Assembly: GCA_048882045.1 (NCBI GenBank)
Contig: JBHLRZ010000008.1
Coordinates: 1 to 64,000, forward strand
Origin: Candidatus Thorarchaeota archaeon
Lineage (GTDB): Archaea > Asgardarchaeota > Thorarchaeia > Thorarchaeales > Thorarchaeaceae
Length of the DNA: 64,000 nucleotides
Reading direction: 5' to 3'
Shown here: positions 3,364 to 15,315 of the stretch, in pieces
Numbering within the stretch: position 1 is the stretch's first letter
How the letters are laid out: each line of letters starts with the position of its first letter
Position numbers and translations under genes: made by a program
Notes under the pieces: generated by a model
Told to the model about the DNA's origin: nothing
Database searches by the model: none
What the model saw: only the letters and a program-made list of their open reading frames with translations

Positions 3364-5304
3364 TCACTCAGCCATGTAGGGATCATAATCGAAGTCTATG
3401 TCTGCGTAGCCAACCTCTTTGAGAAGATTCTCAATGGATTCAGCTCCTGTAACCCATGAGAGTTCCCAAGAGTCGTCATCTGTCAGTATCAACTCAACAT
3501 CCGGAAGATCTCCAAGGAGATTGTGATCCATCTCAATCGTGTCCTGATATGCTCCTGTCAGAGCAAGAACAAAGTACGACTTTGAAACATTCGAGAGATT
3601 TCCAACAGGGATGCCATCACCTATCGCTCCTCCAGGAATAGTAATTGGTCTATTGTCTTTGGTGAACCAGATCTTGTCAGTATGTTGCCTATAGAACTGA
3701 GTGATTTCTCCATCAGAATCACAAGTTATGTCCACAAGCCTTACTGTTGTTTCTGGTTGAACATGAAGGTCCTCGATAGGAATCACCGGAAAGTGCTGTT
3801 TTACAAGTACATGATCAGCTATGCTATTGAAAACGCTGAAGTTCCCAATAACTAAGTGTTCAGGGTGCCAGAAGCTTCTCACAAGCTCGTCGAACTTGTA
3901 AGACTTGAGGTTCATCTCCACAAGTTTCTTTCTTGCTGCACTTTCAAGATTGCCAGTAATCATCTCTTGTTCATGGATGAAGTCAATTCCTTCCAAGGTC
4001 AAGCCACTAAATCTTTCATGGAAATCATTCCAGATATCAGCCAGTTCTGGCAAGGATTTGGCTTTCCCAATACATTCTAGAAATCTGAATTCTTCTTGTT
4101 GAGCGGTTTCAGTAACATATTCTCCATCTGGTTTTGGAAAGATAGAACGGACCTCAAGAGCTTCGACAATGACCATAGATGCCAATGCAGTCACACCTCG
4201 ACCTGATTCAATCATGATGTTAGGGGCTGGATAACGTTCATTCTGCTCCTTTAGTTGTGATTGAACACCCTCTAACAGCAATCGTGCATACTGGTACATC
4301 AGGTCTGAAGGTCGAGCACTAATGTAGTCAATTGCTAGGCCACCACCAAAGTCAATGTTCAACAAATTGGTTAGACCTCTATCACGAAGGTCTCCATAGA
4401 TCTTTGTCAGGAGCTTCCCGAGGTCTTTGAATGCAGATATCTCTGTGATTTGAGATCCTGCATGTGCCAGAATCGTCTGGACCGATTCATCAAAACCGGA
4501 TTCTTTCAGTAAGTCAATGACCTCATAGAGGTCATGGATACTGAGGCCAAATTTGGAATCTCTTCCTGATGAGTGAGACCAGTGGCCCTCTACGCTGAGA
4601 TATGGTTTGATCCTAAGAACAAGATTGGTCTTTTTTGGATCAAACCTGTCAACAATGAACCTGGCTTCATGTGATGATTCAATAGAGATAGCGATATTGT
4701 ATCCCTCATTGATGCATTGGTTAATGAGATTCAGGTATTCTAGATCCTTTGCTCCATTGCAGACAATGGGTCTGTGTTTCTCAGTTTGAATTACATGCTT
4801 GATGAGTAGAAGTTCTGCTTTTGTACCTGCTTCGAGACCATAATCTGGATCCGATCGTATTATCGCAGTGACGCAATCCTTTCGTTGGTTTACCTTAACA
4901 GGGTATATCCCAATGAATTTTCCACTATATTCAGTTCCTTCAATTGCCTTGTCAAAGGCCATCTTCAGTTTTTTAATTTGATAGGTTATTAGCTGTGGAA
5001 CTCGAAGGGTGAATGAGGATGCATATCCAGGACTATCACCGTTCATCTCCTTAGTCTTTAAGACCATCTCCTTGAAGGTTATGAATTGGTCTTGAAGCCG
5101 AATTCCAAGCATACCATCGTCTGTAATATCAAGGAAGTGAAGGTCATTCCTGCTTACTCCATAGACTAGTCTAGATTTGTCTAATGACCATGTGTCATCC
5201 ACCAATGCATTCACCCATGCTTGTTTTTCTGTGAGCAGTGAACTATTGTTCTTCTTCCTCTCGGATTGTGTCCAACATTCCTTGAAATGCTCGAGCAAGT
5301 TCAC
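3364..5304 (-). CDS. speA: PLP-dependent biosynthetic arginine decarboxylase (fold type III)
   Basis: YPVKVNQ (PLP Lys), GLEAGTK, HAGSQI, DFGGGL, ESGR, DITCDSDG, GAYQD; true start is probably just after the upstream stop (~5240). Confidence 0.85.
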   Translation of the reverse strand: MNLLEHFKECWTQSERKKNNSSLLTEKQAWVNALVDDTWSLDKSRLVYGVSRNDLHFLDITDDGMLGIRLQDQFITFKEMVLKTKEMNGDSPGYASSFTLRVPQLITYQIKKLKMAFDKAIEGTEYSGKFIGIYPVKVNQRKDCVTAIIRSDPDYGLEAGTKAELLLIKHVIQTEKHRPIVCNGAKDLEYLNLINQCINEGYNIAISIESSHEARFIVDRFDPKKTNLVLRIKPYLSVEGHWSHSSGRDSKFGLSIHDLYEVIDLLKESGFDESVQTILAHAGSQITEISAFKDLGKLLTKIYGDLRDRGLTNLLNIDFGGGLAIDYISARPSDLMYQYARLLLEGVQSQLKEQNERYPAPNIMIESGRGVTALASMVIVEALEVRSIFPKPDGEYVTETAQQEEFRFLECIGKAKSLPELADIWNDFHERFSGLTLEGIDFIHEQEMITGNLESAARKKLVEMNLKSYKFDELVRSFWHPEHLVIGNFSVFNSIADHVLVKQHFPVIPIEDLHVQPETTVRLVDITCDSDGEITQFYRQHTDKIWFTKDNRPITIPGGAIGDGIPVGNLSNVSKSYFVLALTGAYQDTIEMDHNLLGDLPDVELILTDDDSWELSWVTGAESIENLLKEVGYADIDFDYDPYMAE

Positions 5305-6715
5305 CTATCTCATCATCTTGAGCAATATACTCTGAGTCTACTTGGAGATCTGACGTGTCAAGCGGCTGATCTCGTATCCTCGCAGCGACATTTCGTTCTG
5401 CTAGGTTCATTAGATATTGCAATGGCCTAGTAATAGTATTCGAAATGGCAACAGCGACTGCTCCCGCTACTATTATACCTCCAATAGTGACCAACAGGAT
5501 GTACTGAGCAGCAGCATCGTTCTGAGCTGCAATACGTGCTTCAAGCTGAGGAATGCTCTCCAGGACTTCCACGAGTGGTACTGAGATCACACAGATGTAA
5601 TCTCCTTTTCCAACCTGAGTGAAGACAAGAATACTCTCATTGTTGTTTCGAGTGTATCGTAGAGTTCCAGAGATACCTTCAGCTACCGAGATAATCTGAC
5701 TAACTTGGTTGCTAGTGAGTGCATCACTGAAGTCCGTCTGGTCATTAATCTCCACATCCTGCAGTGGTGGTAGTCCAGCAATGTAATCCTCATCAGCAAC
5801 TTCTGGATGTGCCACCACGCCGCCTGTAGAATCTAAGAGGAATGCATATCCACTCTTGAGAACCTCCACGTTGATGATTTTCTCTCGAATGTCCTCTATG
5901 GTGATGTCACCTGAAATAACAGCAAACGGAATGCTGTTTCTATACACAACCTTTCCAATCGAAATCAAAAGCACGTTGTCAAACTCGTCATAATAAGGTT
6001 CTACAAAGACCATATCTCCATTTCCTGCCCAGATTGTCTGGTACCAGTACTCACCTCTTGGATCGTAAGGATCTGCAATTCTTTCCACATCCGACAAAGG
6101 TCCAAGAATACTACCAGGATAATTGATGAAGAGTCCATCATCAGCAAATGCAATGTACAACCATCTGAACTCAACTTGGTTGTGAATCGCTTTGAATATG
6201 TAATCAATATTTGATACACGACCTAGCTTGTCTGCACTTGCAGCTTCGTAAGTTCCGTAATCCGTGGAATCATACCCTTGGACATACCAGCTACTGTAGT
6301 CCCAAGAAACATTGAGACCGTAATTGGTGTCAAAGTGATTGTCCACTGGAGCAGGAGCTGGTGCACCTGGCTCGAACAGACGGTCAAAGTAAACTTCTCG
6401 ATACTCGTAGGTTGATCCTGTAGCAAACAATGCTTCAAGCTCTTCAGCAGCAGCGGCAATCATTCCCTCTGCACTAGCCAGTTTCTGGTTGATGACGAGT
6501 GCTGTCTTCTGAGCTGTTTCATCCATGTTTATTTGAATCTGATTTTCCAGTGCTGCGGAGCTCTGGCTGGTAGTTGAGTTGCCAATCAGATCCACAAATG
6601 TGAGAGAGATGAATCCCGTAGCTGCTAATGACACAAATGAGATTACGATGAAGGTCAGAATGACATTCGTTCTGAATTTTCCCTTCTTCTTGGTTTGGGT
6701 TGATGATTGTACCAT
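5243..6715 (-). CDS. Membrane sensor TM-dCache-TM-HAMP with no cytoplasmic output domain
   Basis: Two TM helices; YDPRGEYWY...VEPYYD...SGD Cache motif; GYAFLLDSTGGVVAHP; C-terminal HAMP (ITRPL...DEIGELARAFQGM) followed by stop. Confidence 0.85.
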   Translation of the reverse strand: MVQSSTQTKKKGKFRTNVILTFIVISFVSLAATGFISLTFVDLIGNSTTSQSSAALENQIQINMDETAQKTALVINQKLASAEGMIAAAAEELEALFATGSTYEYREVYFDRLFEPGAPAPAPVDNHFDTNYGLNVSWDYSSWYVQGYDSTDYGTYEAASADKLGRVSNIDYIFKAIHNQVEFRWLYIAFADDGLFINYPGSILGPLSDVERIADPYDPRGEYWYQTIWAGNGDMVFVEPYYDEFDNVLLISIGKVVYRNSIPFAVISGDITIEDIREKIINVEVLKSGYAFLLDSTGGVVAHPEVADEDYIAGLPPLQDVEINDQTDFSDALTSNQVSQIISVAEGISGTLRYTRNNNESILVFTQVGKGDYICVISVPLVEVLESIPQLEARIAAQNDAAAQYILLVTIGGIIVAGAVAVAISNTITRPLQYLMNLAERNVAARIRDQPLDTSDLQVDSEYIAQDDEIGELARAFQGMLDTIREEEEQ

Positions 6716-6729
6716 TCATAACACCTCCA

Positions 6730-9603
6730 TCAGTAGTCTACAGTTGTCCCTCCCACTTCCAGCTGTGCCATCAGGACTCCAACCTTCTCAAAAGCCCGTT
6801 CTATGTCCAACTTCACATTAGTGCTATCTACCACAGAGATGTATTGTCCCTGTGGAATGTGGTCACAAATCGATTCGAGGAGTTCCTCGGTCGTTATGTG
6901 GTTTCCAGTCCTTGATGACTTGATTCTTCGCTTTGTATCTGCCCTATCTGAGAGCTCGTGACCTACACCTATTATCAGAAGGTTGACATCAAGGTGATGG
7001 TCTCGAATGAATCCCTCGATGGTGAGAGGTCGGTTTCTCTTTAAACGGTCTTTTTCTGTCAAGATACCTTCGAGAACATCCAACGAATACCTCTTCGAAC
7101 TGTTGTCCTGACCGTCAGTCAGAGCAATGACCCATCTGTGTTCACTAGACTCAATCTTCTCAAGCTCTTCTAATGCTCTACCGAGTGCATCATAGAAAGC
7201 CGTAGCATAGTTTGGATACTTCAGCGACATCAGCGTCTTCACAATTGGATTATCCTCCCCATCACTCTCTCCTTTAATTGTGAGAGGAAGAAGTTCTCGA
7301 TACGACGAGTTGAATACAATCACTGAAGCCGCATCTTGAGGATTGACCTGTCCGTAAAATATCTCCAAAGCACCACGCACAGCAGCGCGAATCCTGTTCT
7401 GTGCCTGCATGCTACCTGAGTAATCTATGACGAAGGTTACACTCTTCTTGTACAGGATGGACCTCCTGAGCTTCTCAGCTTGTCGTCTCACATCATGGCT
7501 TGGCTTGTCCATCTGATCTAGAACATCAGCTAGACGCTGCATAGCAAACACAACAAGCCAGAGTTCATCAGTTTCTTTACCGGAAGAGATTGCATTGTTG
7601 TATTCATCTTCAGCTTGCTTCCACCTACCTTGTGCCTGATGTAGCTCTCCCTCATGAAAATGTATGTATGCAAGGCTTCTCATATAGTCAATCGAGGTTG
7701 CAAGTTCCTTTGCTTCTTCAAACTTTGAATGAGCTTGACTGTATCGACCATCCCGCATCATAACGAGTCCCATTGCATCTAATCTTCTCGCGAGGCCGTA
7801 GGAGTTGTCTAGGGTTCGATCAATGGCTTCCGCGTCCTCAAGCAGAGCCATGGATTTGTCTGCGTGTCCTCTGTCCATCTCAGCTAGTGCCATATTGTGG
7901 TAGAGTGATGCAACCCTAATCATAGCATCTTTCTCGTCTGCACCGTCCTCCTTGGACTTCTCCAAAAGACTCTGAGCAATTACCATCGATTGCTCATAGT
8001 AGTCAATAGCATTCTCTGGATCCCCACGTTGTCTGAATACGTTGCCAATGTTCAATAGCATAGTCTGTTGGCCTTCTGGAATCCCCAATCTCTGGCTAAT
8101 TTCTAGGAGATTCTGGTAGTTGGCCAGTGCTCTGTTGAGGTCGCCTCTTATGAAAGCCTGATTTCCAAACCTTGCAGCTTCTTGGAAACTTAACAATGCA
8201 TCAACAGTTGTTCCTACCTCTTCGTACATCGCTCCTGCTGTTGTTACTCCCCTCGTGAAGTCTTGCTTAGCCATCTTCTTCACAAGACGAGTCATCTCAG
8301 AGATTGGTTGTACAACTGCATGTGCTCTGCGATAAGACACTACAATAACTCCTCCAGCTACTAAAGCCAAAACACCACCAAGTGCAATTGTGAGTAAGAG
8401 TGTCTGAGTTGCCACCGATGCCAACATGGCTGTTGCAGGTGCTACTACATCAGAGTCTGGGACTATTACTGCAAGCACATAGTCGGTGTTAGATACATTT
8501 ACGAAAGCCATGTGCCACTGCTGACCGTTCTTCTGAAACTCAATCCGACCTGATTCTTGCGTCAGGACTGTTGATGTGAGTTGAACGTTGAAAGCAACAG
8601 CTTCAGAGCTGGTTGAGGAACCAAACTCAAGTGTAGTTATTGGAGCAGGTTCATCGAAAACATCCAAGTCTGGATGGGCTACGACAACTCCAGTACTGTT
8701 TAGAAGGAACGAGTATCCGTTAGTAAGGACCTTTGTACCCAGAATTTTCTCGTTTATTGTTGCCATTGTGACATCAGCAGAAACTACTCCAATCAATGTT
8801 CCATTGTCAAACCTTACAGGTCTCCCCATCGAAATCACGAGACCTACTGAAGGATCAACGTATGGCTGAGTGAAGACCACACTGTCATCGCTTGGATTCT
8901 GTGCGACAACATTAGTATACCATATCTCCGCATTTGGGTCGTAGTCGATCTCTGGAGGTCCGACCTCTTCGTTGTCATCCCATTGGAAATATATGAGGTT
9001 GTCAAAAGGATAGTTTCTGAAAAGATGCTGATCAGAGATTCCCAGATCGAAACCCATGTACAACCATCTATAGTCTTCGTTCATTTCATGGAGCGCCTTG
9101 AAGATATTCACCATGTTTGAAGACACATCTAGGGCATACTGTGTCCTTGGATTCAGGTCATGGGGATCGTTGTTGTTCCAATATGGTCGCGGCATGTAGT
9201 AGCAATCAGTCTGGAATGTGATGAAGTCCGAGAAATACGCGTCAACAATCTCGGGATCCGTTTCGAATGTCAAATCGCCCCATTGGGGCTCTTCGGATTG
9301 GTCCCAATAATAGCTATATCTTGCTGTAGCATTAATCCTCCCATTGAACAGGTCTTCGCAGTAAGCTTCCATCATATAGACACCGTCGACATAGTTCTGC
9401 CAACGCTCTTCGATGAAGAGTCCTGTATCATTAGAGAGTCTCATTAGGTTGGCCAGTTCTTCGGCCTTTAATTCCTCTGCAGCATCGCCTGCATTTGCAT
9501 TTGCCACATCGATTATTGCAAAAACCGAAAGTGACGCAATCACCAGAATCGGTATCAATGCAACTGCGACAAATGTGACTACAATCCGTTTTGAAATTTC
9601 CAT
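6730..9603 (-). CDS. Membrane receptor TM-dCache-TM-HAMP-TPR-vWA
   Basis: Cache motifs YDPNAEIWY and TQPYVD; HAMP; several TPRs (LLNIGNVFRQRGDPENAIDYYEQS); vWA MIDAS DYSGS..T..LTDG. Confidence 0.88.
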   Translation of the reverse strand: MEISKRIVVTFVAVALIPILVIASLSVFAIIDVANANAGDAAEELKAEELANLMRLSNDTGLFIEERWQNYVDGVYMMEAYCEDLFNGRINATARYSYYWDQSEEPQWGDLTFETDPEIVDAYFSDFITFQTDCYYMPRPYWNNNDPHDLNPRTQYALDVSSNMVNIFKALHEMNEDYRWLYMGFDLGISDQHLFRNYPFDNLIYFQWDDNEEVGPPEIDYDPNAEIWYTNVVAQNPSDDSVVFTQPYVDPSVGLVISMGRPVRFDNGTLIGVVSADVTMATINEKILGTKVLTNGYSFLLNSTGVVVAHPDLDVFDEPAPITTLEFGSSTSSEAVAFNVQLTSTVLTQESGRIEFQKNGQQWHMAFVNVSNTDYVLAVIVPDSDVVAPATAMLASVATQTLLLTIALGGVLALVAGGVIVVSYRRAHAVVQPISEMTRLVKKMAKQDFTRGVTTAGAMYEEVGTTVDALLSFQEAARFGNQAFIRGDLNRALANYQNLLEISQRLGIPEGQQTMLLNIGNVFRQRGDPENAIDYYEQSMVIAQSLLEKSKEDGADEKDAMIRVASLYHNMALAEMDRGHADKSMALLEDAEAIDRTLDNSYGLARRLDAMGLVMMRDGRYSQAHSKFEEAKELATSIDYMRSLAYIHFHEGELHQAQGRWKQAEDEYNNAISSGKETDELWLVVFAMQRLADVLDQMDKPSHDVRRQAEKLRRSILYKKSVTFVIDYSGSMQAQNRIRAAVRGALEIFYGQVNPQDAASVIVFNSSYRELLPLTIKGESDGEDNPIVKTLMSLKYPNYATAFYDALGRALEELEKIESSEHRWVIALTDGQDNSSKRYSLDVLEGILTEKDRLKRNRPLTIEGFIRDHHLDVNLLIIGVGHELSDRADTKRRIKSSRTGNHITTEELLESICDHIPQGQYISVVDSTNVKLDIERAFEKVGVLMAQLEVGGTTVDY

Positions 9604-9649
9604 CTATCTAACACCACTTTATTGTACGAGTCTTATCCTTCAACTCTCT

Positions 9650-11089
9650 TCAACCACTCCAGGTTGCAAGTTCTTTCACCATTTTCTTAGCGAAGTCATC
9701 AACATCTTGTTTCTCTTCTAGAATGAACTCATCCCCTGACAAGGAACCTTTTATCGTCCCCTCTCCAAGTAGGATGATCAGTGTTCGTCGCAGTATTCTG
9801 CGGTCCACTCCTGTTTCATTCTCAAGACGATGAACATCCAGTGTATCAGAACCAACAAGAAGGTCTCTAAGAGTGCCTTCAACTCTTTGAACATCCCGTT
9901 TTGAAGGCATGGGCATCTTCTTCTCGGTTTCCGTTCTAACAAACACATTACCGTCGATATGCCCTTCTATCGCATCACTCTGAATCATTGCCTGAAGGCT
10001 TCTACGAAGATTATACGCCGCTGGTCTTGGTAGTGTTCGTCTAAGTATTCGATCCAGTTCCTTGAGTTTGATTCTCTTGTGCTTCGATGTAATCGAATCA
10101 ATACTTTCTTGGATGTATTCTTCAATTACATATTCTTCAATCATCTCTAACTTGGCGCCGCATGAAGAGCAGGTTGACGCTTCCGGTGATGTTGGAGCAC
10201 CACAGTTTCCACATTTGATTGCTCTTCTATAAAGCACAGTTTTTGTTGATCCAATCTGCTGAAGGATCACCTTCTCAGTACGTGTCGCCTTGCCTGTGTC
10301 TTGAACCTCCCAGAAGCTCAGTTTCCTGTCCTTCGTACTTACAACAAGAAAAGCTACATCTGAGATATCATCAGGAATACCGGTAGCCATTGCTCTTGGT
10401 GTGTCACCAACATCGAGGCGAGTTACTTCGTTCCCATCAATGTCCCACATTCTCAGCGTCGAAGACTGGTCCCCAGTAATGAACATGGTCCGGTCACCAA
10501 ATGATAGCACTGCAAAGACTGACAGATGAGAACCGAGTTGAAGCTCTTTCAGCTGATATCCCGCAGCTGTTAGGACTGTGACAAGTCCTCTTTTGTCAGC
10601 TACAACTACTTCCAGTTCTGTATCCCTAGTAATGTCTTCCAACCAGACATCTGCAACAGGGTCTCTCATTGTTTTAGTGAAGATGGCATCTGTGTCATCA
10701 TTATAGAGAATTACTCTATTGTTCTGAAGTGCAACGACAACCTCGGCTGCATCATCACCATCAATGTCACGTGCATCACAGGCAACAATGTTACTCTCGA
10801 GGCGTATATTCCAGACTGGACTTCCCCTGTGGTCGACAACCAAGACCTTCTTTCCGACTCCTCCCACTAGAGCATCCTTTCCCTCCCCCTCTACGTCCCC
10901 AACAGCAATACATCTGACCTTGCTACTCCATTTTCTTGTGCTGCGAAGGGTACCTTGGGCATCAAAGACTCTCAACCTATCTCCATAGTCTAGCGAGAAT
11001 ATCTGAGTGCTAGCATCCTGTTTCTGACGAACGTACACAGAGTAGACGTTCGCAGATGTAGCCACCTCTGCAACCGAGCGAATCTTCAC
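9650..11089 (-). CDS. Beta-propeller (FG-GAP/WD40-like) + double Zn-ribbon + PCI-like winged-helix protein
   Basis: Repeats GDVEGEGKDALV, DIDGDDAAEVVV, DITRDTELEVVV; CGNCG..CSSCG; LQAMIQSDAIEGHIDG and LLGEGTIKGSLSG; GTG start at 11089 avoids overlap with the HDAC gene. Confidence 0.7.
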   Translation of the reverse strand: MKIRSVAEVATSANVYSVYVRQKQDASTQIFSLDYGDRLRVFDAQGTLRSTRKWSSKVRCIAVGDVEGEGKDALVGGVGKKVLVVDHRGSPVWNIRLESNIVACDARDIDGDDAAEVVVALQNNRVILYNDDTDAIFTKTMRDPVADVWLEDITRDTELEVVVADKRGLVTVLTAAGYQLKELQLGSHLSVFAVLSFGDRTMFITGDQSSTLRMWDIDGNEVTRLDVGDTPRAMATGIPDDISDVAFLVVSTKDRKLSFWEVQDTGKATRTEKVILQQIGSTKTVLYRRAIKCGNCGAPTSPEASTCSSCGAKLEMIEEYVIEEYIQESIDSITSKHKRIKLKELDRILRRTLPRPAAYNLRRSLQAMIQSDAIEGHIDGNVFVRTETEKKMPMPSKRDVQRVEGTLRDLLVGSDTLDVHRLENETGVDRRILRRTLIILLGEGTIKGSLSGDEFILEEKQDVDDFAKKMVKELATWSG

Positions 11090-11159: not shown

Positions 11160-12242
11160 ATGAAGAATGCTAACAAATGCAAGGTTGGTTTTGTCTGGAA
11201 CCCTTCATTGGAAACCTTCGATTTTGGAACGAAGCATCCAATCAAAGTGGGAAGATTTCAAATGGTACGTGATTTTCTGGCCGCACATGACTTCCTTGAT
11301 CAATCTAACGTTGAGATTCTAAAACCCGAACCACTTTCTGATGACTTGTTGAAGAAGATCCACGCACAGAAGTATCTGGATGCTGTTCGCAGAATGTCTG
11401 AAACCGGTGAAGGTGAGATTGCCATCGACACGCCTGCATTTCTTGGTATATATGACAATGCGAGCATCACTTCTGGAGCTACTGTAACTGGAGTAAGGGC
11501 TGTTGCCAGCGGGAAGGTGAACCATTTCTTATCTCCTACTGGCGGATTCCATCATGCAAAGTTTGAATGGGGCGGAGGATTCTGTATCTTCAATGATGTT
11601 GCTGCTGCTGTATACAAGTTGAAGGATTTTGGTTACCAGAAAATTCTCATTGCTGACTTCGATGTTCATCACGGAAATGGAACTCAGACATATTTCTATG
11701 ATGATCCCAAGGTCATGCAGATTTCGTTCCACGAGGAACCAGAATGGATGTATCCCCATGATGGTTTCATAGATGATATCGGTGAAGGTCCCGGTCGTGG
11801 ATTCAATATCAACGTACCTTTTCCAATGGACTCATGCGATGGTGTATATCGATATGCGTTTGATGAGATTGTACCACCACTCATCGAGTTTTTCCAACCT
11901 GACTTCACCATCTTTTTACCCGGTTTCGATGCCCATTACATGGATCGTCTTGCACACCTTAATCTAACCACTGACCTGATTCGATACATTACTGAATTCT
12001 TTCATAATGCTGCACATAGACTAAGTGAAGGTCGTCTTGGTGTCTTAGCTGGGGGTGGATATACAAATGACTCCTTCAAGTGGGGACTTGGGGTTGTCAT
12101 GTCGATCCTTACTGGGTTCGATTATGAACCACCCAAACAAGAACCACCCTACGATGATGATGAAGAAACATGGGATTTGGTACGTGCCAATGTAGAGAAA
12201 ATCAAGAAACTAGTCTTTCCTTTACATGACATCCCATATTGA
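11160..12242 (+). CDS. Histone deacetylase / AcuC family Zn-dependent deacetylase
   Basis: HP, GGFHHA, GFCIFND, DFDVHHGNG, GFDAH, GGGY motifs. Confidence 0.93.
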   Translation: MKNANKCKVGFVWNPSLETFDFGTKHPIKVGRFQMVRDFLAAHDFLDQSNVEILKPEPLSDDLLKKIHAQKYLDAVRRMSETGEGEIAIDTPAFLGIYDNASITSGATVTGVRAVASGKVNHFLSPTGGFHHAKFEWGGGFCIFNDVAAAVYKLKDFGYQKILIADFDVHHGNGTQTYFYDDPKVMQISFHEEPEWMYPHDGFIDDIGEGPGRGFNINVPFPMDSCDGVYRYAFDEIVPPLIEFFQPDFTIFLPGFDAHYMDRLAHLNLTTDLIRYITEFFHNAAHRLSEGRLGVLAGGGYTNDSFKWGLGVVMSILTGFDYEPPKQEPPYDDDEETWDLVRANVEKIKKLVFPLHDIPY

Positions 12243-13833: not shown

Positions 13834-15315
13834 ATGGGTAATTTGTCTAAAAAGACAAGGAAACGGACCTCAAAAGAAAAATCCCCTAAGACTCATAAGA
13901 AGGAACCCGAACTCCCTGCTGTTAACGACGATATCCTATATGATATCTTGAATAACTCTCACGAAGGAATAGCGATTGTAGGCGATGACTACAAACTTGA
14001 ATATGTAAATGAGAAGACCTGTCAAATTTTTCGGGGACATCCAAAAGACCTTCTCGGTCATGACTTCAGAAAATTCATCAAACAGGACATGGCGAAAATT
14101 GTTGCTGAAAGATATACCACAAGACAACAAGGAAAAGACGTGCCAAATGAGTATTCGATTGAGATCATTAGAAAAGACGGGTCAGTTGGAACAGCAGAAT
14201 TGAAAATTACTACGACTGTTGGTCCTGATGGTAAGTCAAAGACTATTGCTCATGTCCTTGATGTCACTGAACTAGTTGCTGAAACAGAAGCTTTCGAGGA
14301 ATCAGAAACCCGCTATCAGATGCTAGTAGAAACCATGAAAGATGGTCTTGTAATTGATGATGCTGATGGTAATTTTGTATACACGAATGATGCATTCTGC
14401 GATATGATTGGATATTCGCCTGATGAATTAATAGGACGTCCATGGATAGAATATACTCACGAAATGGATCCTGAAAAACTCATACAGAAAATCTCAGATC
14501 GCAAATCGGGTAAGTCTGAGAGTTATGAGCTTTATTGGATAACTAAGACCGGCGACCTAGTACCCACCATAATCTCAGCGACTCCCCACATAGACAGGGA
14601 TGGAAAATTCGTAGGGACCTTCGCAGTTGTCACTGAAATATCTGCTCAGAAGGATGCTGAAGAAACTGTCCAGTTCTACCTTGATTTACTCTCTCATGAT
14701 ATCGCAAACCAACTACAGGTGATAATGACAAGTAGTGGAATGCTCGAAGAAGAAGTACCTCCTTCTTACGTAGATGAGGCCAGACAAGATATCCTAGATG
14801 CTGTTGAGCGTTGCAATCGACTCATCACCAAGGTCAAGCGGGCTGCCCAGATACGAAACATACCTCTTTCAAAAATAGATGCGATTCCAGTCCTCAAAGA
14901 AAAAATCAAGATTCTCGAACGTGTCTATGGCGCTAGCGTACACGCAGAGGGCTTGAAGAAGAAGTTCATTGTCGAAGCTGACGTTTTACTCGGTGAGATG
15001 ATTTGGAACCTATTGGAAAATGCTGCAAGGCATAATCCCAAAGATGAGAAGCAGGTCTGGGTCTCTTGTGAAACAACAAATGGAGCTTATAGACTCATTG
15101 TTGCTGACGATGGTTCAGGACTTAGTGACATGAGGAAGAAACTCCTCTTTTCTGAGAGAAAGTATGGTGGCGGTGTTGGTCTGACGCTGGTGAGTCAGAT
15201 GATTCGTAAATACGGAGGATCAATTGAAGTCACAGATCGAGTCGATGGTCAACCTGAATTAGGGTCCAAGTTCATTGTCACCCTGAAGCAAGCCACTCCA
15301 AGAAAGAAGCGCTGA
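13834..15315 (+). CDS. Cytoplasmic PAS-PAS sensor histidine kinase
   Basis: Two PAS/PAC repeats; H-box LSHDIANQL; N-box NLLENAARH; DDGSG and GVGL boxes. Confidence 0.92.
   Translation: MGNLSKKTRKRTSKEKSPKTHKKEPELPAVNDDILYDILNNSHEGIAIVGDDYKLEYVNEKTCQIFRGHPKDLLGHDFRKFIKQDMAKIVAERYTTRQQGKDVPNEYSIEIIRKDGSVGTAELKITTTVGPDGKSKTIAHVLDVTELVAETEAFEESETRYQMLVETMKDGLVIDDADGNFVYTNDAFCDMIGYSPDELIGRPWIEYTHEMDPEKLIQKISDRKSGKSESYELYWITKTGDLVPTIISATPHIDRDGKFVGTFAVVTEISAQKDAEETVQFYLDLLSHDIANQLQVIMTSSGMLEEEVPPSYVDEARQDILDAVERCNRLITKVKRAAQIRNIPLSKIDAIPVLKEKIKILERVYGASVHAEGLKKKFIVEADVLLGEMIWNLLENAARHNPKDEKQVWVSCETTNGAYRLIVADDGSGLSDMRKKLLFSERKYGGGVGLTLVSQMIRKYGGSIEVTDRVDGQPELGSKFIVTLKQATPRKKR

Follow-up and report, generated by a model that had tools for sequence, protein, structure and literature searches.

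A putative kinase-free Cache-HAMP-TPR-vWA receptor system of Asgard archaea and its genomic link to arginine decarboxylase

Introduction

Transmembrane signaling in prokaryotes is classed by its enzymatic or chemotaxis outputs. Here, we describe a locus that looks like a conserved, apparently undescribed receptor system without a kinase, the output of which seems to resemble no described class. The locus lies in a 64,000-nucleotide stretch of DNA from a Candidatus Thorarchaeota archaeon (GenBank assembly GCA_048882045.1, contig JBHLRZ010000008.1, positions 1 to 64,000). This stretch, referred to as the window, corresponds to contig C8 in an Asgard metagenome-assembled genome of 3.6 Mb that is 93% complete. 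Across positions 3364 to 11089, four co-oriented open reading frames (ORFs) on the minus strand encode a propeller protein (gene A), a receptor (gene B), a co-receptor (gene C), and a SpeA-like arginine decarboxylase (gene D) (Table 1). Our overall explanation, that B and C form an enzyme-free receptor coupling amine sensing to agmatine synthesis by regulated docking, has in our estimate an even chance of being right.

B and C share the transmembrane (TM)-dCache_1-TM-HAMP topology and five of six pocket residues with the bacterial dCache_1AA receptors, including PctA, PctB, and PctC of Pseudomonas and Mlp24 and Mlp37 of Vibrio (PMC8915833, PMC10589655). However, they differ from these receptors in three respects: a glutamate replaces the pocket arginine, a tetratricopeptide repeat (TPR)-von Willebrand factor A (vWA) region (B) or nothing (C) replaces the methyl-accepting chemotaxis protein (MCP), kinase, cyclase, or phosphatase output, and the two paralogues form an obligate pair. 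The dCache_1AM amine receptors (PctD, PacA, and McpX) are likewise derived from amino acid sensors by loss of the carboxylate-binding arginine (PMC10589655), and biogenic amines are the ligands proposed here. The dCache_1AM motif, taken in this study from its published description, includes an upstream insertion that bears a conserved Arg/Asp pair (R103/D133), together with an additional aromatic residue for cation-pi contact, and its archaeal occurrence has been reported only in Halobacteriota (PMC10589655). The arginine loss in B and C probably arose independently of the dCache_1AM change.

Other known systems share elements of the proposed output. In both MCPs and integrins, signals are relayed through conformational changes that affect which partners dock in the cytoplasm, as is suggested for B and C, and integrins also combine a vWA domain and its metal ion-dependent adhesion site (MIDAS) with a beta-propeller. 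In contrast to MCPs, the proteins described here have no homology to the MCP signaling domain, and no CheA or CheW is encoded nearby. In contrast to integrins, the vWA domain and propeller are predicted to be cytoplasmic and reside on separate membrane and soluble proteins, with a predicted contact that avoids the MIDAS. The eukaryotic alpha2delta/CACHD1 proteins also hold a vWA and a dCache_1 domain in one chain, and CACHD1 (8s7c) matches the dCache domain of B with an E value of 7.7e-8. However, their vWA domain is extracellular and inserted in the Cache region, whereas that of B is predicted to be cytoplasmic and follows the HAMP segment and TPRs; no evidence for direct descent between B and alpha2delta/CACHD1 was obtained. 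Finally, BatA/BatB-type proteins and MoxR-vWA systems such as RavA-ViaA share the vWA MIDAS and the TPRs, and RavA-ViaA binds a decarboxylase, LdcI. These systems work with a MoxR ATPase and without a sensor, whereas B has a sensor and a HAMP segment, and the decarboxylase folds differ as well (fold III for the SpeA discussed here, fold I for LdcI). In the literature on Asgard vWA, Cache, HAMP, and TPR combinations and on the Thorarchaeota arginine decarboxylase, no description of the B family was found.

Results and discussion

Domain architecture of receptor B and co-receptor C

The first part of B consists of a TM segment (residues about 7 to 30), a dCache_1 domain (about 35 to 395), a second TM segment (401 to 424), and a HAMP-like segment (425 to 478). 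This is followed by about 5.5 TPRs (479 to 700; ten helices), a capping helix (701 to 716), and a vWA domain (719 to 949) in an AlphaFold2 (AF2) model with a predicted local distance difference test (pLDDT) score of 81.8. In Pfam searches, B matched dCache_1 (PF02743; 52.4 bits; gathering threshold, 45), TPR_12 (66.2 bits), VWA_2 (41.3 bits), and VWA (32.7 bits). The HAMP family (PF00672; cutoff, 25 bits) gave no match at an E value of ≤0.01. The segment was assigned through the orthologue in f14 (GTDB families are numbered f1, f5, f9, etc.), which scores 21.9 bits (E value, 2.2e-4), through two residues, P433 and E462, that are invariant in 30 sequences, and through its helix-gap-helix shape in the AF2 model.

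Within B, conservation is highest at the HAMP-TPR junction, in the first TPRs, and in the MIDAS, the motifs of which (DxSGSM, T, and LTDGxDN) are invariant in all 30 aligned members and align with the metal site of the solved vWA domains of TRAP and ANTXR2. Judged by these residues, the vWA domain of B carries a complete MIDAS set and could bind metal.

C is a paralogue of the sensor half of B, with 29% identity over residues 6 to 441. Its HAMP match (27.6 bits) is above the Pfam cutoff and its dCache_1 match (44.4 bits) just below it, while the f14 orthologue of C scores 51.5 bits for dCache_1. The protein ends a few acidic residues past the HAMP domain, with no output domain. In addition, searches of B and C with Pfam and NCBIfam revealed no kinase, MCP (MCPsignal), GGDEF, or phosphatase domain in either protein. 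By its domain content, B is a receptor without enzymatic output. An MCP identity was rejected for want of any MCPsignal match, though one database record calls an orthologue "McpC."

The locus had first been described from its DNA sequence alone (referred to as the initial annotation) as encoding a dCache-HAMP-TPR-vWA receptor without an enzyme output and an output-less co-receptor. Both descriptions agree with the domains found here, except that B has, in place of a HAMP called by Pfam, a HAMP-like segment supported by the orthologue, the model, and the invariant residues; a PCI domain that was placed in A is discussed below.

In f12, C is longer (583 to 665 aa; L037:11110-12860, L038:293-2290, and L060), with a C-terminal extension that resembles HEAT/armadillo-type repeats. 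The "output-less" partner seems to have acquired a docking module of its own in this family.

Conservation of the neighborhood across Asgard archaea

A comparison within the genus showed the entire neighborhood to be syntenic, including unrelated flanking genes for an alcohol dehydrogenase (ADH), an M24 peptidase, and a histone deacetylase (HDAC)-family protein. Because synteny that includes such genes is uninformative, 400 Asgard genomes were searched, and 40 loci from other genera and families were fetched, onto which the four proteins were mapped. Full-length relatives of B occur in 114 of the 400 genomes, representing nine GTDB families, and all loci examined have B and C side by side in this order. 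The position of the other two genes differs between families. D is found after C in f1, f14, and f20 and in divergent orientation to B in f18 and f5; in f12, the distance is 6 kb. A lies ahead of B in f1 and behind C in f26, f9, and f27; in f18, its orientation is convergent. A profile search for A gave one strong match per genome, which adjoins B/C wherever B is present.

The phylum-wide search detected D in 108 genomes from seven families (f1, f5, f12, f14, f18, f19, and f20), all of which except f19 have B. No D was detected in f26 (0/14 genomes), f9 (0/135), or f27 (0/4), amounting to 0/153 genomes. Outside f1, B and D co-occur in 23 genomes; they lie at most 6.1 kb apart in 16 of these, and in the other 7 the contig ends first. 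Four families (f14, f20, f5, and f12) combine the receptor with SpeA and have no A, and three (f26, f9, and f27) keep B-C-A without SpeA.

Because order and orientation vary between families while adjacency persists, the arrangement points to a functional neighborhood and not to shared descent alone. This is good evidence for a functional unit with a B-C core and two recurrent accessories, A and D, and the genomic tie between the receptor and SpeA is strong in the Thorarchaeota lineage. The initial annotation, which made the system depend on conserved synteny in related genomes, is thereby borne out across Asgard families. That the four genes are instead ordinary neighbors, kept adjacent by descent only, with B/C as a receptor whose output is unlinked and with SpeA and the propeller gene unrelated to it, would fit the within-genus synteny, which takes in the unrelated ADH, M24 peptidase, and HDAC-family genes. 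However, adjacency outlasts rearrangement into differing orders and orientations across at least nine families. Moreover, as described below, pocket chemistry co-varies with D, a linker histidine co-varies with A, and the complex model of A and B passes its controls. We consider this explanation very improbable. The ADH, M24, and HDAC-family neighbors were themselves rejected as members of the system, their synteny being limited to close relatives of the window genome.

Departures from the usual gene content were also observed. A short variant in f9 (L049:8551-10739, L069, and L070) consists of adjacent genes for a 574-aa HAMP-TPR-vWA protein without Cache, a 153-aa stub related to the HAMP end of C, and a 614-aa A homologue. 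In an f14 genome (G039), a 115-aa RING-finger ORF (zf-RING_2; E value, 6e-5; L015:12958-13305) is found upstream of B, at the position of the Thorarchaeaceae propeller gene.

Sensor pockets and candidate ligand

The dCache domain of B was aligned to PctA (5LTX), PctB, PctC, and Mlp37, and its best PDB sequence matches have E values of 1e-9 to 2e-10. In PctA numbering, the dCache_1AA motif comprises Y121, R126, W128, Y129, Y144, and D173, of which R126 holds the carboxylate of the ligand (PMC10589655). The pockets of B and C both read Y-E-W-Y-Y-D. Five of the six residues are kept, and E226 of B and E222 of C replace R126, by which neither protein has the class motif.

Loss of the arginine is associated with SpeA in one direction only. 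Among 77 sensor domains of the fetched loci, arginine occupies the R126 position in none of the SpeA-linked receptors, most of which have Glu or Gln. The canonical arginine is kept in both members of the f26 pair (YRWYYD) and in receptor B of the SpeA-less second pairs of f18 and f14. On a quick maximum-likelihood tree of B, two distinct clades show this contrast. R126 binds the very group that is lost on decarboxylation, so the simplest reading is a ligand that has been decarboxylated. The pockets may therefore hold a decarboxylated amino acid or a polyamine, for which agmatine, the product of the adjacent SpeA, would be the leading candidate. A possible link to agmatine/polyamine metabolism had been suggested in the initial annotation; it stands firmly as genomic linkage to SpeA, while we infer agmatine or a polyamine as the ligand. 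This ligand hypothesis can be approached with recombinant sensor domains, making culture of the organism unnecessary.

Propeller protein A and its predicted docking on B

In the AF2 model of A (pLDDT, 83.5), a six-bladed beta-propeller (residues 1 to 263) is followed by a helix, a CxxC..CxxC zinc ribbon (about residues 292 to 315), and two winged helices (339 to 385 and 416 to 457) with a single helix ahead of each. A check for hydrophobic runs found no TM segment in A. Pfam gave weak propeller and zinc-ribbon matches. Specific fold relatives did not emerge either: Foldseek against the PDB returned generic propellers only (NHL, WD40, BBS2/9/1, and ITFG2), and a PDB sequence search returned only weak WD40 matches. 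The winged-helix tail is limited to Thorarchaeaceae; A of f26 and f27 has little beyond the propeller and zinc ribbon, and that of f9 has a different insert. The PCI domain proposed for A in the initial annotation was rejected, as PF01399 gave no profile match in A at an E value of ≤0.01 and the region in question is modeled as the two winged helices, which, being found in Thorarchaeaceae only, do not belong to the core of the protein.

To model the complex, residues 476 to 957 of B and 1 to 335 of A were used in three runs alongside three controls. The complex score had a median of 0.62 (runs, 0.66, 0.00, and 0.62), compared to 0.00 for the best of the three controls, with a partner pLDDT of at least 74. 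Of 80 solved complexes, 58 reached the mark for such scores, compared to 2 of 110 mismatched pairs; these counts are only a rough guide here, since our own alignments were used. In the modeled interface, residues 693 to 714 of B (the TPR capping helix) span the propeller's top face and contact one loop per blade. The contacts include Y16, one of just three invariant residues in the A family. Evidence that does not depend on the model comes from His703 of the capping helix, which is present in 23 of 23 receptors with A next door (five families) and in 0 of 17 without A. One of these 17 belongs to a second receptor pair in f18, found in a genome whose first pair has both His703 and A. Presence and absence of His703 are separated by at least two transitions on the B tree. 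Docking of A on the capping helix is thus a prediction with moderate support that falls short of proof.

This result changes the picture of an integrin-like vWA output that recruits the propeller protein, as was initially put forward. An association of B with A is indeed predicted, but its site is the TPR capping helix, and none of the predicted contacts falls in the vWA domain. Consequently, an integrin-like head, in which the propeller would sit against the MIDAS face, was rejected. The term "eukaryote-style" signaling, which had also been applied to the locus, remains an analogy.

The fold of A allows for a different primary output, namely, gene regulation. A could be a nucleic acid-binding regulator that is held on the TPR arm of B and released or captured upon ligand binding, similar to membrane-sequestered transcription factors, with SpeA as one of its targets. 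The predicted docking on B, the zinc ribbon and two winged helices of the modeled tail, and the status of A as a dedicated single-copy neighbor of B/C are all consistent with such a role. However, only the Thorarchaeaceae version of A carries the winged helices, the receptor occurs with SpeA but without A in four families, and the invariant MIDAS would be left without a role. Sequestration of a regulator is, in our assessment, possible but unlikely as the main function.

The linked arginine decarboxylase

D matches Orn_Arg_deC_N of Pfam with 71.9 bits and carries the motifs YPVKVN, GGGL, ESGR, and CDSDG, in which the pyridoxal phosphate (PLP) lysine, glycine loop, and catalytic cysteine are intact. 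The match to the SpeA equivalog models TIGR01273 and NF003763 is full length, with scores below the cutoff of both (329 versus 624 and 340 versus 369, respectively). D is the sole PF02784 gene of the 93% complete window genome, in which no gene for a pyruvoyl arginine decarboxylase (PF01862) was found; two genes of the arginase/agmatinase family are located elsewhere in the genome. With its intact motifs and as the only gene of either decarboxylase family, D looks like a housekeeping enzyme. It is probably the only agmatine source of the cell, which makes a regulatory link to the receptor plausible. Agmatine is needed by archaea for tRNA-Ile agmatidine and polyamines, and the sole route to this compound that was detected is the one linked to the B/C system.

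The acidic-aromatic motif at the C terminus of D, (D/E)(D/N/S)PY[MFLV], is shared by 11 of 13 receptor-linked SpeA proteins, and we infer that the tail could act as a docking peptide for TPR or MIDAS sites. The tight linkage and conserved acidic tail of SpeA would also suit a scaffold or metabolon, in which B, C, and A form a platform that places SpeA, and perhaps transporters, at the membrane for arginine uptake or agmatine export. In that case, the MIDAS of the vWA domain would serve as an assembly or chaperone site as in MoxR-vWA systems, to which RavA-ViaA with its lysine decarboxylase offers a distant parallel, and both vWA and TPR are assembly modules. Nevertheless, the genes scanned, nine at the window locus and ten at the f14 locus, included no MoxR-type AAA+ domain or transporter. 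Signal input is indicated by the two intact dCache domains for ligand binding and by the selection acting on the HAMP modules, and f26, f9, and f27 keep B-C-A without SpeA. A platform of this kind is therefore quite unlikely.

In two f20 loci (L039:15135-16574 and L040:15215-16654), a shorter fold-III decarboxylase paralogue (479 aa) is encoded just downstream of the SpeA-like gene.

Proposed mechanism

Regulated docking, the explanation that we prefer, builds on the gene content, domains, conservation, linkage, and pocket substitution observed directly above. B and C would make up a transmembrane receptor that has two subunits and no enzyme activity, probably a heterodimer around a shared HAMP bundle. 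Their pockets, which keep the residues for the amino group and have glutamate in place of the carboxylate-binding arginine, would accommodate a polyamine or an amino acid that has been decarboxylated, agmatine being the first choice. The signal would pass through the HAMP segment, the second helix of which continues into the first, invariant TPR, to the noncatalytic cytoplasmic TPR-vWA arm. The output would be given by docking, in part through the predicted binding of propeller protein A to the TPR capping helix and in part through the invariant MIDAS, which would hold an acidic residue of a second partner. Because the MIDAS is conserved with or without SpeA and with or without A, this partner should be universal. 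The only universal neighbor of B is C, and its acidic tail is a candidate, as is the DDPY[MF] tail of SpeA. The net effect would be a feedback that matches agmatine/polyamine synthesis by the sole SpeA to the outside amine level. Possible routes are direct control or localization of the SpeA enzyme and, in Thorarchaeaceae, release of A, which might contact nucleic acid through its zinc ribbon and winged helices. If true, docking of a dedicated propeller partner on a Cache-HAMP-coupled TPR-vWA arm would add a scaffold-type class to the known outputs, and this among the closest archaeal relatives of eukaryotes, whose signaling is predominantly scaffold based.

Several observations weigh against parts of this explanation. 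With regard to linkage, some Thorarchaeaceae have D but no B (e.g., G391, 98% complete), and in one genome (G370) D lies 180 kb from B. With regard to the sensor, B of the window scores below the Pfam threshold for HAMP, and the pocket matches no experimentally defined amine motif among those testable. The receptors of f9 and f27 also lack the pocket arginine, though their genomes have no SpeA, so that arginine loss alone does not predict a link to SpeA. With regard to docking, one of the three runs scored 0.00, and agreement between runs was at least 0% of contacts, nil by the tool's own measure. Finally, with about two independent transitions, His703 could track clade history and not binding.

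Members of the B family outside Asgard archaea

The B family is not confined to Asgard archaea. On a contig of a giant-virus metagenome-assembled genome (L075:5398-9765; IMGVR GVMAG-M-3300023179-27_000001; 116 kb, 29% GC), a C-like gene (503 aa) precedes a full-length B-like gene of 883 aa, which has an intact MIDAS and the canonical arginine pocket (DPRCRVWY). Three more low-GC metagenomic contigs (L071 to L073) carry B-like genes, and two of these (L072 and L073) also carry a C-like gene upstream. In a profile search of 1.8 billion representatives, approximately 90 clusters (50% identity) had a full-length B-family match, in some cases with about 600 aa added at the N terminus. Some members are longer, at 1,500 to 2,130 aa (P0316 to P0318, P0329, P0335, and P0381; L071:7001-11566); their last ~900 residues comprise the complete B architecture, preceded by an extension of 600 to 1,100 aa with no Pfam match on record.

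On the broadest view, these receptors would represent an ancient Asgard form of receptor-to-enzyme signaling that is free of kinases and second messengers, in which a heterodimeric Cache receptor relays ligand binding solely through a change in the shape of its cytoplasmic TPR-vWA scaffold, which captures a propeller adaptor and, via the MIDAS, a metabolic enzyme. The receptor pair would have been exchanged between Asgard archaea and giant viruses or the eukaryotes that these infect, with a possible relationship to the origin of eukaryotic vWA-Cache proteins such as alpha2delta and CACHD1. We regard this scenario as highly doubtful.

Gene starts, feature coordinates, and flanking genes

The tight packing of the four co-oriented genes, with gaps of 46 and 14 nt, was confirmed (A-B spacer, 9604-9649; B-C spacer, 6716-6729). 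The C-D junction, initially described as abutting or overlapping, depends on the start of D. The longest D ORF, from a GTG at 5304, overlaps C by 62 nt. Since orthologues can be aligned only from about residue 25 to 39 of this ORF, the start is more likely the GTG at 5214 (616 aa), which would leave a gap of 28 nt to C. For A, the GTG start at 11089 is consistent with the lengths of ~120 database orthologues (479 to 481 aa), and a GGTG-type ribosome-binding site precedes it. A scan for bacterial-type promoters and terminators, which is unsuited to archaea, found sites no commoner than in shuffled sequence.

Table 1. Coordinates of the genes and features of the receptor locus in the window
Feature	Position	Strand	Description and basis
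Gene A	9650..11089	-	479 aa, GTG start, predicted cytoplasmic; ORF and AF2 model
A propeller	10301..11089	-	With the Zn ribbon, the sole part of A common to all Asgard families; alignment
A propeller top face, including invariant Y16 and D34-Y35-G36	within 10301..11089	-	Predicted docking surface for B; complex model
Gene B	6730..9603	-	957 aa; Pfam, AF2 model, and hydrophobic runs
B Glu226	8926..8928	-	Position of the carboxylate-binding Arg126 of PctA; alignment to 5LTX
TPR capping helix of B (residues 701-716, PSHDVRRQAEKLRRSI)	7456..7503	-	Predicted contact with A; holds His703
MIDAS motif D727-Y-S-G-S731 (with T801 and D830)	7411..7425	-	In the vWA domain; invariant in every member examined
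Gene C	5243..6715	-	490 aa; TM1, dCache_1, TM2, HAMP, and short acidic tail (REEEEQ); Pfam
C Glu222	6050-6052	-	At the Arg126 position
Gene D	3364..5304 (probable start 5214)	-	SpeA-like fold-III PLP decarboxylase; profile matches and motifs
D C-terminal tail DYDPYMAE	3367..3390	-	Acidic-aromatic motif, beyond the region alignable to canonical SpeA

Two further genes of the window were noted. A PAS-PAS-HisKA-HATPase sensor kinase (13834-15315, plus strand) is encoded 2.6 kb from A, with synteny limited to the genus and no link to the receptor module in other families. Its presence indicates that the organism has conventional kinases as well. The HDAC-family gene (11160-12242, plus strand; Hist_deacetyl E value, 1e-74; no NCBIfam name) is divergent from A with a 70-nt spacer, and it adjoins the locus only in the same genus and in L050, not in other Thorarchaeaceae genera. 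The HDAC family includes acetylpolyamine amidohydrolases, which would suit a polyamine theme.

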